Shown here: positions 23,659 through 53,095 of the stretch, one piece after another
How the letters are laid out: every line of letters begins with the position of its first letter
How positions within the stretch are numbered: the first letter of the stretch is position 1
From: Escherichia coli
GTDB taxonomy: Bacteria; Pseudomonadota; Gammaproteobacteria; Enterobacterales; Enterobacteriaceae
DNA: 64,000 bases
Strand: one strand, 5' to 3'
Assembly: GCF_013315695.1 (NCBI RefSeq)
Contig: NZ_CP054353.1
Program-made: the position numbers and the translations under genes
Notes under the pieces: model-generated
What the model saw: only the letters and a program-made list of their open reading frames with translations
Told to the model about the DNA's origin: nothing
The model's database searches: none

Positions 23659-25084
23659 TAATGCCAGTCAGTTAAGCAACTGACTGGCTCTTTTTCGGGG
23701 CTGTGGGGTATTTCCAGGGCCTCTCCTTTACCACTCTCGGGAAGGCCCTTTCCCTTCTTGTCGGTAATTTCACAAGTTGTCCCATACTTGCAAGATCGCG
23801 CATCAGCTCCGGTATACGTCCCGGTGAAGCGCCCTGCAATGTCATCAGCATTCTCATCACCATTCCGCATGATTCTGAGAAACTCAGTTGATTCGGCCAG
23901 TAACCTTTCAGATGTTCCGCCATTTTAATCATCTGATATCTCACCAGATTATAAGCCAGTAAGACACCCCACAGCTCTTGCTCCACAAGCTCCGGTTTTT
24001 TACTTCTCAGCGTCAGCCTGCTCAGTTGCATCGTCTGTTTTATCTCCCTGTATCCCAGTTCGATTTCCCAGCGATGACTGTACAGATCCGCCATTTCTCC
24101 TCCGGGGAAGCGCATGGCGTCCGTCATCGACGTCAGCAGATGGCAGACTTTTCCTTTGCGCGTCACGGTCAGCAGGCGGGCTGTCACTTCATTTCCCAGT
24201 CCCGGCCACTTTTTTCGTGCCTGCGGGCTGGTTTTCAGCTTCACCAGATGATCGCCTTTACCCAGTTTTCTGATCTCTTCATATTGCGCTCCCTTTCTGA
24301 GAGGTATCATCCAGTGGCGGTGTTCTCCCGCCAGGCTCCAGGCATTTAACAGTCCCAGTGAGTAATAACCTTTATCCATTAACGTCAGAGTGTTATCGCC
24401 GGTTTGTTCTATAAGTTGCTCAGCAAGCTCATTTTCGCTGTTCTTCATCGTGCCGAAGGCTGCAGCCGTCAGCAGATGGCTGGTCAGTTCCATCTGGCAG
24501 ACCATTTTGACCTGCGGGTAGAGCGCCGGGTTCCCGGCATGTGTCTGGCGGGGGAAGGCTGCATCGTTCTCTGGTGTATCCGGTGTGCGCCAGAACACAC
24601 CATCGATGGCCAGCAGGGTCAGGCCGCACCAGTGCGGATGCGGCGTGGCGTTATGCCAGAGCTGCGCTGTTTTCGTGAACACGCGGCGGACAGCCTCACT
24701 TCCCAGGCGCTGGCGGGCCTGAATAACGGCACTGGGGGCAACGAAGGGGCGATTGCCCGGCAGCATGATGTCCAGGCGATTCACAATCTGGTGAAGAGGT
24801 TCTTTACGCTCAAGCGCCATGCCAACAATACACCAGACCATCATTTCGAGGGGAAGACGGCGCTTGCGTAGCGTTACAGTACCTGATTCGGCAAGGCAAC
24901 GAGAGATGAGTTCGGGGTCGAGGTAATCCCCCAGAGAAGTCAGTGGGTTACGCAGAGAATCGTAACGGGATACCAGATCAAGAGCCTGTCCAATGTGCAT
25001 AAAAAAATCCGGAAACAAGTGAGCGTTTCCGGATTCTTACACAGCCACTGGATCGGTCAACTGATCCTTAACTGATCGGCATTA
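23659..25084 (-). mobile_element. IS4 (1426 bp) with 12-bp target-site duplication catccttgtaag
   Basis: Termini taatgccagtcagttaag … cttaactgatcggcatta; identical 12-mers at 23647-23658 and 25085-25096. Confidence 0.9.
23672..25000 (-). CDS. insG: IS4 transposase (DDE family)
   Basis: ORF 23672..25018; likely start at [10 protein letters not shown]. Confidence 0.85.
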
Positions 25085-27322
25085 CATCCTTGTAAGCCAT
25101 TTTTTTCTGTAACCGCTGCGCCATTGGTAAGGCTAGTTCACTGGCCCCAATAAAGAGGGTGAATATCCACAGTCGTTGATGATCTCGTTGCAAGCAGGTC
25201 ATAAACGAAGGAATGGCCGTACTGCCAAAAATCCCCAGAATCTCTTTCTCACCTGAATATTGCTCCTCAATGATTATTTGGTTGAGAAATGAAATCGCCT
25301 GTTGTCCCGGTAAGTAACAAAGTGCAGATAGATTCCAGCTCTTGTTGGCATTGTTGTGATATTTCGCAAACTCAGCTTTTAGTGTTGGAAAATCAAAGCG
25401 CAACAAGGCATCAACAGCGCTTTGCGGTATATATTTTTTTTCATGCAAGTCATCCTCGCAATGCCGCCATTCATTAAAACCTAATTGCCAAAGGATTTGT
25501 TGTTCTGGTGTAAAAGGAATGAAAGATGTCTCCCAACTTTCTTTTTCAATTAGTGGCAGATCGGTAAATAAGGTTTGCTGTGATGCCTGATATTGCGCGA
25601 TTTCACTGAATCTGGATATGTCAGTATGACTGATTAACTCTGTAATTCCAGGTGTGATATCCGTCACGGCTGGAACAGGAAGCACAGGTAAATCAAATAC
25701 GGGTATTACATTTTTCTTCTTATTTATTACCCACGGTGGAGCGACAAATAGCTGCGGTAGCATATCCGCAGTAGCGTATTCATATTCTTCAGCGACTGAC
25801 TGAGGACGACATTCAGATAAGATGCCTGCCGCCTTAGCATTAACCCAGGGAATGACGTCGCATACTAACTCTGGCGTGATGGTAATCAATTTGACAAGCG
25901 CTTTATGCCACTCTTTATCTTCATGTATTGCCAGCAAAGTTGCATAAGCGGCAATAGCCGCAGCGGGATGTTTTTGACAGGCTTTGCTTAAGTATTCCAG
26001 GTGCTTTTTCTTGCCAATTACACCGAGGATCAGAATTTGAATCGCATCCGGGTGATTCGTTTTCCATAACCATTTGACAAGATCTTCAGTCTCGCTGATG
26101 CGCTCGAAGAGATAAGTGGGATTGTCAGAATGCTCTTCCACAAACTCAGTAAGTATCCGGCTTACACCGCTCACCCCATTATTTGCCAGCAACATTGCCA
26201 GATAAGCGCGAAAATCACGATATAACGGTGGGAAGTCGTATTTTTCTGCTGCAGTCAGAGCGGCATCATCGGTTACTACCAGTCTTAACCAGGTCATCGC
26301 CGGAACGTTTTGGTCTGCGTAACGTAGAGCCATAGCATTGGCAATATCCGGGCGTTCAGGGAGCAGTAACGCCGCAAAAGGTTGCCGTGCTGGGGATAGC
26401 GTCGGAATAGCAGTAAGCACTTTATTCACACAGCGTTGCCACTCATCTTCTGAAGCGAGTGAAAGATGATGACATAGACGTTGATGCCAACTCGGTAGCG
26501 ATTCTGCTTTGTGACCAGGTGGAATGATGGTGGTGACTGCGCCTTTTACTGGTTTATATTTGAGTTGAAGAGCAAAAAGGGCGATTTCAACGGCACTTTC
26601 CAGACCACAGCGAATGACTAAGTCATCGACCAGTTCATCTGCAGAGTAAGAGTTCCAAAAACTCCAGAGCAATGCCGCATCAGATTGCGCACTCCCTGTT
26701 TGTTGATTGTCCAGAATTCGACTTTGTAACTCGGCAAACGCTTGCTGCCAGTTTTCAGGATAAGAGCGGTAATTATTGTCGGGGTCATATGCCCTGGTGT
26801 TATTCGCAATGCGCTGCCATATTTGACCATCTTTGTGCAGATAATTGATCTCTCTGGGGCGAGAGCGATGTGGAAAAGCAAATCGATTAATATCGTCAGT
26901 GACAGGAATGACTGCATCATCAGCCAGCCATGGGTGTTTATTTTGACTCACAGGGGGAGTTTTAACTTCAGGAGTGGCTTTGGTGACTGGAGGGAGATAT
27001 ACGTTTGCCGAATTGCCTTCCACATACCCCTTTTTCGTTTTCTCCGCAATCAGCTTCAGCTCCGCTTTTTCCGCCGCCGCAGCATCCGCAAAACTTTTTA
27101 CCTGGTTTTGCCCTTTGGTGCCAACTTTTCCCCAACAGATATGCAACTCGTTTCCCTGCTGCTCCACCGCCCAGAATTTATGTGATTTTTCGTCCTGATA
27201 GATAAAGTGTTTCATTCTGCATTCCTGTAATTTTATCCAGTTGAATGCTGATGCTACCAGTATTTATGCGGGTTAGAGAGAGACAAAATCGCAAGAAAAC
27301 AACTTTAGGAATTTATAAAGAA

Positions 27323-49432: not shown

Positions 49433-49846
49433 GATCGTATGTGCCTTTATGATTGGTCTGTAGATAGTGTAGAGCAGAAAAGAAAAGGTAGAGTCAGAAC
49501 AGGATGAAAGTCGGAGGATAAAAAGTCAGTTCAAGTATGGAAGATTCAGTGGTTACCACCAGGAGCTTGCAATGGGGACAGCGAATACTAACGGCAGCCA
49601 CCGATAAATTTCAAAAAAGAGCATATACCTAATATTCAACTAAACAGTGGCATCTTCAATATACTATTAAAAATATATTAACCCCCCCATGGGGTTACCC
49701 GGAAGGGCATCCGTGTCTGTAATTCCTACTTATGTAGGAAATGTTGTACAGAACATTTATTATAATCCTATTCAAATATAATAATCATGCCATTATTATA
49801 TTTAAACACCAGAGCGTGTCGTTGGTATTTAATGGGGGAAGGTAAG

Positions 49847-50164
49847 ATGAAAAAGATAGCTGCTATATCATTAATTAGTGTTTTTCTTATGTCTGGTTGT
49901 GCTGTGCATAATGATGAGACAAGTATCGGTAAATTTGGCCTTGCATATAAAAGTAATATTCAGCGTAAACTCGATAACCAATACTACACCGAAGCCGAAG
50001 CTTCTTTAGCCAGGGGCAGAATTTCTGGTGCAGAAAATATAGTAAAAAATGATGCAGCTCATTTCTGTGTTACTCAGGGAAAAAAAATGCAGATAGTTGA
50101 CCTGAAGACAGAAGGTGCAGGATTACATGGCGTCGCTCGTCTGACATTCAAATGTGGAGAGTGA
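49847..50164 (+). CDS. yegR: Lipoprotein YegR
   Basis: ORF 49787..50164; likely start MKKIAAISLISVFLMSGC (lipobox). Confidence 0.75.
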   Translation: MKKIAAISLISVFLMSGCAVHNDETSIGKFGLAYKSNIQRKLDNQYYTEAEASLARGRISGAENIVKNDAAHFCVTQGKKMQIVDLKTEGAGLHGVARLTFKCGE

Positions 50165-50324
50165 GAATATTTTTTGGTAAGCGTCAAATATGCGCGTTCT
50201 GGCTGTGCGTAGCCGGAACCTGTGGGAGCACGATGCCGATAAGTGAAAGGCATCGTGCTATGAAGGAGGATTCTATCGATGTGGTCAATGGAAGATGGTT
50301 ACCAGGATACGACGGCTTATGCAT

Positions 50325-50411
50325 AAAAAATAAGCCCGTGTAAGGGAGATTACACAGGCTAAGGAGGTGGTTCCTGGTACAGCTAGCATTTTATGGGTTA
50401 TGTTTTTCAGC
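50325..50411 (-). ncRNA. cyaR: CyaR (RyeE) small RNA
   Basis: Minus strand reads gctgaaaaacataacccataaaatgctagctgtaccaggaaccacctccttagcctgtgtaatctcccttacacgggcttatttttt, matching the CyaR sequence as I recall it, with its terminator. Confidence 0.85.
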
Positions 50412-50495
50412 GAAACGGATGATAACCTTAATAAATGCAGCTGTATGTGATCGGTTTCTAAGAATTTTCCATCCGGGAAAAATAATCGAAATTAA

Positions 50496-51857
50496 TCACT
50501 TACCGTGGGGGTTACGCGTGGTTTCCCCGGAGAAATTACGCATCAGCAGCGCGTAATTTAGCTCAAGATCCTGCGGGACCGGGATCCACACAGTATAACC
50601 ATCGCCTGGTGCGACCGGCATTGCTTCGCCTTTGGCGTTTTCCATATGCTCAAGGGTAAAGTTAATGTTCCCTTGCGGCGTCATCAGCTCAAGGCTGTCG
50701 CCAACGGAGAATTTATTTTTCACCGCTACCGCCGCGAGGTCGCCCTTGCGCTCACCGGTAAACTCACCAACAAACTGCTGGCGGTCAGAAACTGAATAAC
50801 CGTATTCGTAGTTCTGATAATCGTCGTGAGTATGACGACGCAGGAAACCTTCGGTATAGCCACGATGCGCCAGACCTTCCAGAGTTTCCAGCAGGCTGGT
50901 ATCGAATGGTTTTCCCGCAGCTGCGTCATCGATAGCTTTACGGTAAACCTGCGCGGTGCGTGCGCAATAGTAGAAAGATTTTGTACGACCTTCGATTTTC
51001 AGCGAATGCACGCCCATTTTGGTCAGGCGTTCAACGTGGGCGATAGCGCGCAGATCTTTCGAGTTCATGATGTAAGTGCCGTGCTCATCTTCAAACGCAG
51101 TCATATACTCGCCCGGACGCTGAGCTTCTTCGATCATAAACACTTTGTCGGTTGGCGCGCCGATACCCAGCGTCGGCTCAACATTTTGCACCGGAATCGG
51201 CTCGTACTTATGTACGATGTTGCCAACATCATCTTCTTTCCCTTCCTGGACGTTGTACTCCCAGCGGCAGGCGTTGGTGCAGGTGCCCTGGTTCGGGTCG
51301 CGCTTGTTGATATAGCCAGAGAGCAGGCAGCGACCGGAGTAGGCCATGCACAGCGCGCCGTGAACGAAGATTTCGATCTCCATATCCGGCACCTGATTGC
51401 GGATCTCTTCAATCTCTTCCAGCGACAGCTCGCGAGAGAGGATCACGCGGGTCAGGCCCATTTGCTGCCAGAATTTCACCGTCGCCCAGTTCACGGCGTT
51501 AGCCTGCACCGAGAGGTGGATCGGCATTTCAGGGAAGTGCTCGCGCACCAGCATAATCAGCCCTGGATCGGACATAATCAGCGCATCCGGCCCCATCTCC
51601 ACCACCGGTTTCAGGTCACGGATAAAGGTTTTCAGCTTGGCGTTGTGCGGTGCAATGTTGACCACGACATAAAACTTTTTCCCCAGCGCGTGGGCTTCAT
51701 TGATGCCGAGCTGAAGATTTTCGTGGTTGAATTCGTTGTTGCGCACACGCAGGGAGTAACGTGGCTGGCCCGCATAAACAGCATCTGCGCCATAAGCGAA
51801 AGCGTAACGCATATTTTTCAGCGTTCCCGCCGGGGAAAGGAGTTCCGGTTTAAACAT
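50496..51857 (-). CDS. yegQ: Peptidase U32 family protein YegQ
   Basis: 453-aa ORF; gene order next to cyaR. Confidence 0.85.
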   Translation of the reverse strand: MFKPELLSPAGTLKNMRYAFAYGADAVYAGQPRYSLRVRNNEFNHENLQLGINEAHALGKKFYVVVNIAPHNAKLKTFIRDLKPVVEMGPDALIMSDPGLIMLVREHFPEMPIHLSVQANAVNWATVKFWQQMGLTRVILSRELSLEEIEEIRNQVPDMEIEIFVHGALCMAYSGRCLLSGYINKRDPNQGTCTNACRWEYNVQEGKEDDVGNIVHKYEPIPVQNVEPTLGIGAPTDKVFMIEEAQRPGEYMTAFEDEHGTYIMNSKDLRAIAHVERLTKMGVHSLKIEGRTKSFYYCARTAQVYRKAIDDAAAGKPFDTSLLETLEGLAHRGYTEGFLRRHTHDDYQNYEYGYSVSDRQQFVGEFTGERKGDLAAVAVKNKFSVGDSLELMTPQGNINFTLEHMENAKGEAMPVAPGDGYTVWIPVPQDLELNYALLMRNFSGETTRNPHGK

Positions 51858-51959
51858 AATTCTCTCGTTCTGATGACAGGTCAGATCCGCTTCACCTGAT
51901 GAAGCGGTTAGGGGAGTGCCCCCACTTTAAGGGCGGGCATTGTAGCGCAATCGGCGGGT

Positions 51960-52256
51960 TTAGCTCCAGTGTAAATGTCTGGAGGCGTCCTGGTTTTGGT
52001 TAAGGATACGAATGACGATAATTTCCTCTGGCGATTGCAGGAAATAAATTACGTGGCGTTCAAAAGGAAGAACAAAAATACCTTCGCCTAATTCAGGTCT
52101 GGGCGTACCTATATTATTGTTACTCAGAATCTGGAGAACGTCTGAAAGATGTTCCACATATCTGTCGGCTTGTGGTTCGCCGAAATGGTGATAGCTGTAA
52201 TACCAGATGCCTTCTAAATCCTCATTGGCTTTTGGCATGAGTTTTATAGTACGCAC
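51960..52256 (-). CDS. ParE/RelE-family toxin (type II toxin-antitoxin)
   Basis: 98-aa ORF; start 1 nt after the upstream antitoxin stop (GTG at 52256, or ATG at 52238). Confidence 0.7.
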   Translation of the reverse strand: MRTIKLMPKANEDLEGIWYYSYHHFGEPQADRYVEHLSDVLQILSNNNIGTPRPELGEGIFVLPFERHVIYFLQSPEEIIVIRILNQNQDASRHLHWS

Positions 52257-52257
52257 A

Positions 52258-52509
52258 TTATTTCCTTATCCCTGCTTTCACCTTCCGTAAAAACGCGTCC
52301 TTTTCCCACGGCTGAGCTTCACCACTACTCAACCCTTCAGCGAGCATGTCACGTAACGCTTGCAGGCGAGACTCTGCTTGCTTTTCTCGAAGTAAGCGCA
52401 GCGACTCACGGATCACTTCGCTTTGGGTGCGATAGTCGCCGGATTCAATTAAGGACTCGATAAATTCACGCAACTCATCGCCGAGATCAACCGTCATCGT
52501 TCTGGCCAT
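52258..52509 (-). CDS. ParD-like ribbon-helix-helix antitoxin
   Basis: ORF 52258..52554; likely start MARTMTVDLGDELREFIESL; 83 aa. Confidence 0.7.
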   Translation of the reverse strand: MARTMTVDLGDELREFIESLIESGDYRTQSEVIRESLRLLREKQAESRLQALRDMLAEGLSSGEAQPWEKDAFLRKVKAGIRK

Positions 52510-52762
52510 TTTACACCCGCCTGTAAGTAAAAATCTTACATCAGTGTATTTCATAAACCGGATAGCGTCACGAAAGTATTAGAAGATATTTTGGCATATG
52601 AACATGTTCAGGAAGATAAGTATGGGATGGTAAACAAAGAAAGCACAACGAGTGCTCGTCAGTGCCCACTATTTTAATGGCGGAGGTTAATCTTAATTAT
52701 CAATAACTAAGAGTTGTTTTGATATAAAGCCGGACGCCAACAACCCACGCCCGGCATCGTAA

Positions 52763-53095
52763 TTACGTATTGTCTTTTACCGTCTGGCTTGTGCCATTGG
52801 CTTTAACGGAGGCAATTCCGGTTTCACGAGATTGCGCGGTGGCGTACATCTGGCTGGAGCCGATAATTTGATGATTGGCGGCTTTCAGATTGAAATAGAA
52901 TTTGCCGTTACTTGCCGTTTTTTTCTCATAGCGTTCTTCTTGCGGGCTGTTGCTACGTACCGACGCGATGCCCTTTTCCGCAGAGGCTTTTGAGGTATAC
53001 AGCTCGCTGGTGAGGATAGTCTCACCATTGCCCGCTTTTAGCACAAACCGGAATTGATTATCACTGCTCTTACTGAGTTCAAACCAACCAGCCAT
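52763..53095 (-). CDS. yegP: YegP (DUF1508 tandem-domain protein)
   Basis: ORF 52763..53134; likely start MAGWFELSKSSDNQFRF; two internal repeats; 110 aa. Confidence 0.8.
   Translation of the reverse strand: MAGWFELSKSSDNQFRFVLKAGNGETILTSELYTSKASAEKGIASVRSNSPQEERYEKKTASNGKFYFNLKAANHQIIGSSQMYATAQSRETGIASVKANGTSQTVKDNT

Follow-up and report, generated by a model that had tools for sequence, protein, structure and literature searches.

What is the pair of small open reading frames (ORFs) that separates yegP from yegQ (trhP) in some strains of Escherichia coli, and how did it come to lie there? We addressed this question in a 64,000-nucleotide stretch of E. coli DNA (contig NZ_CP054353.1), which is referred to below as the window. 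A first-pass annotation, made from the letters of the window alone, had proposed that the two ORFs form a ParD-ParE-like type II toxin-antitoxin (TA) pair in a small accessory island. Our analysis of the sequence, together with analogy to solved relatives, indicates that the locus is probably an intact chromosomal type II TA operon of the ParE/PF03693-ParD kind, which would be active and autoregulated. The pair is thus an uncharacterised and ordinary member of the well-known ParDE family, hitherto annotated automatically, and it is its evolutionary context that is informative. The two genes are as follows.

52258-52509, minus strand: parD, probable true span, 83 aa, start ATG at 52509, stop TAA at 52260-52258.
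51960-52256, minus strand: parE, start GTG (translated as Met), 98 aa in all, stop TAA at 51962-51960.

Gene layout and identity of the antitoxin

Two adjacent ORFs of 98 aa each occupy the minus strand, one at 51960-52256 with a GTG start and the other, if its longest form is taken, at 52258-52554; the antitoxin gene is the upstream partner and the toxin gene the downstream one. The coordinates confirmed the operon layout described in the first-pass annotation, in that the parD stop TAA (52260-52258) is followed by the single base 52257 and then by the parE GTG (52256-52254). A Shine-Dalgarno sequence, AAGGA, lies 6 nt before this GTG, and the start is supported by the N-terminus MRTIKL, which aligns with that of the homologues. 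Both genes are already annotated by RefSeq in strain 2016C-3878, which is of identical sequence.

The upstream protein matched NCBIfam TIGR02606 at 87.6 bits (curated cutoff 46.2) and Pfam ParD_antitoxin PF03693 (E=8.6e-19), besides a weak match to RHH_1. In a sequence search of the PDB, PrpA (7YCS_D) aligned to it over 77 residues with 61% identity (E=1.9e-27), and VcParD2, CcParD1, and MtParD1 aligned as well. By these profile matches and the gene order, ParD is assigned to the ribbon-helix-helix (RHH) antitoxins of the PF03693/TIGR02606 (CC2985) family, encoded directly upstream of parE, as the first-pass annotation had supposed.

Both RefSeq/PGAP and the longest ORF run parD up to ATG 52554, which gives 98 aa. 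We argued that the true start is very probably ATG 52509 (83 aa), as judged from four features of the sequence: the Pfam and PDB matches begin only at residue 16 of the 98-aa ORF; a 1-nt indel, present both in E. whittamii and in E. coli PapRG-04-4, shifts the upstream ATG out of frame and leaves the 83-aa ORF intact; the plasmid homologues begin with MARTMTV; and ATG 52554 sits within the spacer of the promoter proposed below. The segment encoding the 98-aa extension (52510-52554) is not conserved. PGAP flags parD of PapRG-04-4 as a 'frameshifted' pseudogene because of the 1-nt indel within this extension, and with the start at ATG 52509 that flag is spurious.

The toxin groups with gyrase-poisoning ParEs

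The downstream protein matched Pfam ParE_toxin PF05016 (E=7.7e-14), its residues 4-90 covering model positions 1-88 of 89. All its significant sequence matches in the PDB were ParEs of the gyrase type, namely PrpT 7YCS (6e-13), MtParE1 8C24, CcParE1 3KXE, and VcParE2 7R5A. An AlphaFold2 (AF2) model (pLDDT 92) placed helices at residues 7-24 and 26-45 and strands at 59-64, 67-73, and 77-85, that is, the long N-terminal alpha-hairpin specific to ParE packed on a three-stranded sheet. When this model was searched with Foldseek, the best 22 matches were all ParE-type toxins (TM 0.74-0.87), and the RNases RelE, YoeB, and YafQ ranked below them (TM ~0.5-0.66). BLASTP of the toxin against E. coli RelE gave no alignment. 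The ParE fold that the first-pass annotation had attributed to the toxin was therefore recovered by both profile and model, and on sequence and predicted structure the toxin groups with the gyrase-poisoning ParEs rather than with the RelE RNases; the sequence matches, the fold ranking, and the BLASTP result together led us to reject an identity as a RelE-type RNase. Gyrase is the putative target by analogy with solved ParE homologues; VcParE2 and MtParE1 have both been reported to inhibit it (PMC3001019, PMC10899793). ParE toxins are of some practical interest as gyrase poisons.

A candidate operator shared with plasmid and Yersinia loci

We next describe the control region upstream of parD, in which three elements were recognized.

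52543-52571, minus strand: putative parDE promoter, -35 GTGACG at 52571-52566, 17-nt spacer, -10 TACACT at 52548-52543.
52522-52540: palindrome TGTAAG-N7-CTTACA, candidate ParD operator, 13-31 nt upstream of the parD ATG.
52631-52657, minus strand: terminator-like hairpin and T-run, GAGCACTCGTTGTGCTT then TCTTTGTTTA, within the insert and upstream of the parDE promoter.

The promoter was obtained from a relaxed scan, and its -10 box TACACT lines up with the boxes of the plasmid and Yersinia loci, which read TATAAT (K. pneumoniae plasmid), TATACT, and TAGACT. The palindrome overlaps the expected transcription start of parDE, predicted near 52536. Its place and sequence are kept in E. coli and E. 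whittamii, and likewise in a Salmonella plasmid-like contig, Yersinia mollaretii, and a K. pneumoniae IncFIB/FII plasmid. Together with the -10 box it is the sole element that these loci share, the remainder of their upstream DNA being unalignable. The exact TGTAAG-N7-CTTACA occurs once in the window, where 0.06 occurrences are expected at up to 1 mismatch. We infer that the palindrome marks the likely ParD operator, binding of ParD being predicted by this phylogenetic footprint. The only other near-match in the window, AGTAAG-N7-CTTACA at 26148-26166 with 1 mismatch, lies within a 715-aa minus-strand ORF (25068-27215), the N-terminus of which we take to resemble a WGR domain; this near-match is probably due to chance. 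A second palindrome, GAACATGTTC (52609-52600), was considered as operator and set aside. Although kept across Escherichia, it is missing from the plasmid and Yersinia loci, and TGTAAG-N7-CTTACA was preferred because it is common to the chromosomal, plasmid, and Yersinia loci. The stem of the hairpin at 52631-52657 is kept in E. whittamii, and this hairpin may shield parDE from read-through out of yegP.

An insert of fixed site and wide but partial distribution

In its chromosomal setting the pair is flanked by housekeeping genes, and no defence island surrounds it.

52763-53095: yegP, neighbour of the pair, with baeR and baeS beyond.
50496-51857: yegQ/trhP, neighbour of the pair on the other side.
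~51949-52728, minus strand: whole insert, 780 bp relative to the empty site of K-12 and E. albertii, boundaries +/- ~6 nt.

The yegP-trhP spacer measures 905 bp in the window and 146 bp in K-12 MG1655, where it holds no such genes; the first-pass annotation had correctly described the K-12 interval as short and devoid of the pair. Alignments to K-12 and E. albertii showed that the insert stands in for a variable segment of 21-23 nt of the empty site. Besides parD and parE it comprises ~220 nt of non-coding sequence on the upstream side and 11 nt past the parE stop, and its GC content is 43.3% as against 52.0% for the window. Neither an integrase nor a transposase is present in the insert, parD and parE being its only genes, and no direct repeats or att site were found at its boundaries. 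Because integrase, transposase, and a clear flanking repeat are lacking, the locus is a TA pair inserted on its own and not a mobile island. An imperfect direct repeat of 23 nt does exist between the left part of the insert (52661-52683) and the trhP leader (51915-51936) (CCGCCATTAAAATAGTGGGCACT / CCGCCCTTAAAGTGGGGGCACT), but as a flanking repeat or att site it was rejected, being borderline (16/1000 shuffles) and not reproduced in E. whittamii. The remnant and the four-gene cassette described below both have their left breakpoint at the left copy of this repeat.

The distribution of the insert was determined in 5426 complete E. coli genomes. It is carried by 1843-1845 of them (~34%), in single copy and always on the chromosome at the yegP-trhP site; no genome had it on a plasmid or at a second site. 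A K-12-type empty junction is found in 3173 genomes, and a 5.2-kb four-gene cassette occupies the site in 298. The pair is thus accessory and not universal in E. coli, as had been proposed, though the 'small island' is better described as an old insert of a bare TA pair. The carriers, ATCC 8739 among them, split into two allele groups ~2.6% apart, and the allele of the window belongs to the minority group, with 188 genomes at >=99% identity. In strain HS-01 (NZ_CP172817.1, L012:690-1240) the ends of the insert are intact, but low-complexity noise rich in A, G, and T stands in place of the parDE coding region; we rejected it as an independent partial deletion, and it is most likely an artefact of assembly or base calling.

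Some observations were also made on the surroundings of the site. In strain 2016C-3878, yegR and yegQ are annotated as neighbours (window ~49787-50496), and the P2-like remnant that lies beside cyaR in K-12 (ogrK, yegZ; cryptic prophage PR-X) is unannotated. SF-468 carries ogrK and a phage late control D gene at the yegR-yegQ position.

History of the insert and selection on its genes

The spacer of E. albertii is empty and contains the short segment that K-12 also has, and for this reason the empty site is regarded as ancestral. The alternative that the K-12 spacer is a deletion scar was rejected, as its 21-23 nt bear no significant similarity to the insert (24-76% of shuffles were as good) and E. 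albertii possesses it too. E. whittamii has an intact pair at the identical site, with DNA identities of 95.6% for parD, 93.6% for parE, 85-93% for the flanking genes, and 82.5% for the upstream non-coding DNA. In other cryptic Escherichia lineages a deleted remnant is found: Escherichia sp. E1V33 and related genomes retain ~65 nt at the left end together with the final ~130 nt of parE.

The four-gene cassette occurs in B2 strains including SF-468, Nissle 1917, and ATCC 11775, and also in cryptic clades. On either side of it stands one end of the parDE insert (window 51949-51978 on one side, 52667-52728 on the other), and therefore it replaced the interior of a pre-existing parDE insert.

SF-468, L004:1700-6900 (slot equivalent to window 51979-52666): cassette with products of 404 aa (PcfJ domain), 238 aa (DUF1266), 702 aa (DUF4034), and 201 aa (hypothetical protein).

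PADLOC and NCBIfam searches gave zero matches for the four cassette proteins. The parDE site illustrates the reuse of TA insertion spots by other elements, and within one genus it makes the empty, intact, remnant, and overwritten states of a single fixed slot available side by side.

Taken together, these comparisons of sequence indicate that the insert is old rather than recent and was kept, deleted, or overwritten according to lineage. The arrival of the module between yegP and trhP would postdate the divergence from E. albertii. Its source was probably the related parDE modules carried by conjugative plasmids of enterobacteria, and it would since have persisted as a self-maintaining accessory locus.

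Both genes appear to be under purifying selection, which is strong on ParD. Between the two E. coli alleles ParD shows 0 amino-acid against 4 silent changes, and in comparison with E. whittamii 1 against 10-11. The corresponding amino-acid/silent changes in ParE are 3/3 between the E. coli alleles and 6/11 and 4/9 in the remaining comparisons with E. whittamii.

Relatives on plasmids and elsewhere

The ParE module was matched by 2640 plasmid records, of which 562 at 60-80% identity. Conjugative plasmids, among them those of Klebsiella, Escherichia, Salmonella, and Enterobacter, carry the nearest relatives of ParE (64-67% identity). The ParDs of these plasmids are surprisingly similar to the ParD studied here (90-92% identity), the N-terminal 50-residue RHH domain being identical; for the pair on a K. 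pneumoniae IncF plasmid the identities are 92% for ParD and 66% for ParE. In complete E. coli genomes ~590 plasmid places match the module, intact and decayed copies being counted together, and from the counts we estimate that the chromosomal pair and a related plasmid copy coexist in up to ~270 E. coli genomes. On the E. coli plasmids pJJ1887-4 (L031:1534-2057) and p1LS4 (L032:1534-2078) parDE has a tyrosine recombinase and a RepB-type replication gene as neighbours; each of the two copies is decayed, with parD frameshifted after the RHH domain and stops in parE.

Further relatives were also seen. One adjoins phage lysis genes in Yersinia mollaretii, and the phage records searched gave one fragmentary match only. 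In Pluralibacter gergoviae a parE relative of 69% identity lies between alr and tyrB (L006:3700-4300); only a 43-aa ORF is left of it, an intact parD is missing upstream, and it represents another decaying chromosomal copy.

Active operon or retained antitoxin

If parDE is indeed an active and autoregulated operon, its working can be envisaged as follows. ParD would dimerise through its N-terminal RHH domain and bind TGTAAG-N7-CTTACA over the promoter, thereby repressing parDE, and the C-terminal half of ParD would wrap ParE and neutralise it. Upon depletion of ParD, free ParE would poison DNA gyrase, and this would be expected to damage DNA, induce the SOS response, cause filamentation, and stop growth or kill the cell. 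The module would persist because loss of the module, or of ParD, is costly.

Several points weigh against this reading. The parDE promoter scores below the threshold of the standard scan. The NCBIfam profiles gave zero matches to the toxin, and toxicity, target, and neutralisation are all deduced from homologues with 28-41% toxin identity. Toxicity is weak in some chromosomal ParEs, for instance P. aeruginosa ParE1. The match to PF05016 cannot by itself fix the target, because this family also holds E. coli RelE and a subcluster of RelE-type mRNases (PMC11980606). Phe25 of ParE aligns with Trp25 in the alpha1-alpha2 loop of VcParE2, at a position that is poorly conserved in the family; Trp25 is key for the interaction of VcParE2 with gyrase, the W25F variant is less toxic, and only Tyr is fully active in its place (10.1101/2025.07.24.666505). 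The motif RVLHQ, widely conserved in ParEs, reads RILNQ here and RILSQ in the plasmid relatives. In the literature searched, we found no experimental study of this parDE locus.

The two substitutions are also what one would expect if the toxin were attenuated or inactive and the locus were kept mainly for the sake of ParD, either as a DNA-binding regulator or as an anti-addiction antitoxin that would cross-repress and cross-neutralise plasmid-borne parDE. Such a role for ParD fits the fact that it is conserved far better than ParE, both towards the K. pneumoniae plasmid pair and between the E. coli alleles, as well as the operator common to chromosomal and plasmid parDE and the estimated co-occurrence of the two kinds of copy in up to ~270 genomes; the homologue PrpA, moreover, has a second DNA-binding role at plasmid iterons (PMC7848731). 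However, the 98-aa ORF of ParE is intact in both E. coli and E. whittamii, with silent changes outnumbering replacements between the two species, and the lineages that lost the function did so by outright deletion and not by decay of the toxin alone. An active toxin would itself enforce strong conservation of its antitoxin, and the two plasmid copies inspected in E. coli, those of pJJ1887-4 and p1LS4, are pseudogenes. Retention mainly for the sake of ParD is a reasonable alternative, though we hold it to be unlikely.

That the pair serves mainly as an anti-phage abortive-infection module, in which infection frees ParE and the cell is killed or arrested, appears more doubtful still. Type II TA modules including members of the RelE/ParE superfamily have been linked to defence (PMC11980606), and the variable occurrence of the pair among strains and the alternative cassette in the same slot would suit such a role. 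Against it, neither ParD nor ParE matched a family of PADLOC-DB 2.0 (0 for each), the neighbourhood is one of housekeeping genes, the phage records yielded but the one fragment, and our literature search found no experimental link of the pair to phage defence. The role in stabilisation or phage defence named in the first-pass annotation is a general one for such pairs and finds no specific support here, the pair being chromosomal in every carrier genome. Finally, the toxin might be a ribosome-dependent mRNA endonuclease of the RelE kind that owes its ParE label to the Pfam profile alone. This reading, conceivable from the breadth of PF05016 and the common overall fold, is highly improbable in view of the PDB and Foldseek matches, the alpha-hairpin of the model, the failure to align with RelE, and a cognate antitoxin that is a PF03693 ParD and not RelB. 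An intact and active ParDE operon accordingly remains the favoured account of the locus.

The trhP leader and possible consequences of the insertion

The insertion lies immediately upstream of the leader of trhP, which encodes a tRNA U34 hydroxylase.

51858-51948, minus strand: trhP/yegQ leader, 91 nt, outside the insert, starting with the -10-like TACAAT at 51944-51939.

Across E. coli, E. albertii, E. whittamii, and E1V33 this leader is near-invariant, against differences of 8-15% in the nearby coding DNA. In K-12, trhP is preceded by the promoter-like TTTACC-17-TACAAT (2 overlapping matches versus 0.2 expected), and the -35 element TTTACC of this arrangement lies in the segment that the insert replaced. 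Between parE and trhP of the window the standard scan detected no minus-strand promoter-like site and no terminator. Since the -35 is removed and no terminator follows parE, we proposed that trhP could be transcribed by read-through from parDE. The leader also holds a perfect 8-bp hairpin (51887-51907). A known structured RNA in the spacer or leader was considered and rejected, as the Rfam search of both returned a sub-threshold chance match only and the folding energy of the leader is not unusual (z = -0.88).

The conserved ParD and shared operator point to cross-talk with resistance and virulence plasmids, and the displaced trhP promoter to a possible coupling of a tRNA-modification gene to TA autoregulation. 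It is tempting to combine the two, such that ParD cross-represses or neutralises plasmid-borne parDE, acting as an anti-addiction factor, and at the same time trhP is read through from a TA-autoregulated promoter. This joint proposal is speculative and unlikely; were it true, chromosomal ParD would shape which plasmids a strain can lose, and trhP would stand under a TA-autoregulated promoter in a third of E. coli strains.

Comparison with known systems

The nearest known systems are the parDE modules of enterobacterial plasmids, such as that of K. pneumoniae 544090 p1 (IncFIB/IncFII, toxin WP_086624930.1) and those of Salmonella plasmids, which have the same ParE/PF03693-ParD pair in the same gene order. 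They share with the chromosomal locus the -10 box and a GTAAG-N7-CTTAC operator immediately upstream of parD, along with the RIL(S/N)Q variant. They differ in that the plasmid genes overlap by 14 nt and encode a ParD of 88 aa, whereas the chromosomal genes are separated by a 1-nt gap, with a ParD of 83 aa and a GTG start for parE; unlike plasmid parDE, the chromosomal copy occupies one fixed site. Our literature search found no experimental study of this plasmid subgroup. ParDE-I of the IncI1 plasmid pJIE512b (PMC6614396), which we had considered as the same pair, was set apart by its description, its toxin being of 93 aa and only 15% identical to CcParE1, so that it probably belongs to another subfamily.

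Among systems of solved structure, PrpT/PrpA of the Pseudoalteromonas rubra plasmid pMBL6842 (7YCS; PMC7848731, PMC9731233) is the best match for both proteins. PrpT is 34% identical to the ParE described here (E=6e-13), and both have Phe at the Trp25-equivalent position. PrpT is lethal to E. coli and makes the cells filament; PrpA neutralises it and leaves a footprint on its own promoter, between the -35 and the -10 (PMC7848731). By binding to plasmid iterons PrpA in addition controls copy number, and the locus here is without a plasmid origin; PrpT/PrpA further differs in being plasmid-borne in a marine host, and the two toxins have diverged. VcParD2/ParE2 (7R5A), MtParDE1 (8C24), and CcParDE1 (3KXE) have the same fold as our ParE model (TM 0.85, rmsd 1.6-1.8 A), and in all three an RHH ParD partner wraps the toxin. 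Their toxins are 26-31% identical to ParE, which departs from the solved gyrase-poisoning ParEs in having Phe for Trp25 and Asn for the His of RVLHQ. The stoichiometry of the complex varies among the solved ParDE systems.

ParE of plasmid RK2 likewise inhibits E. coli gyrase and is encoded in an antitoxin-toxin operon. Its ParD belongs to a different antitoxin family, PF09386 (PMC7848731), to which we saw no significant match for the antitoxin here.

As regards the chromosomal site, the closest parallels are ccdO157 (folA-apaH) and mazEF (relA-mazG), which likewise are bare TA pairs in conserved spacers, variable across E. coli (PMC7167474). According to a review, TA content varies greatly among E. 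coli strains, and TA insertion spots are reused by other elements (PMC7167474); decay or deletion by lineage and reuse of the spot are features that the parDE site shares with these two. Their toxin families differ from ParE, and the parDE insert has the further peculiarity that it displaces the -35 of the putative promoter of the downstream gene.

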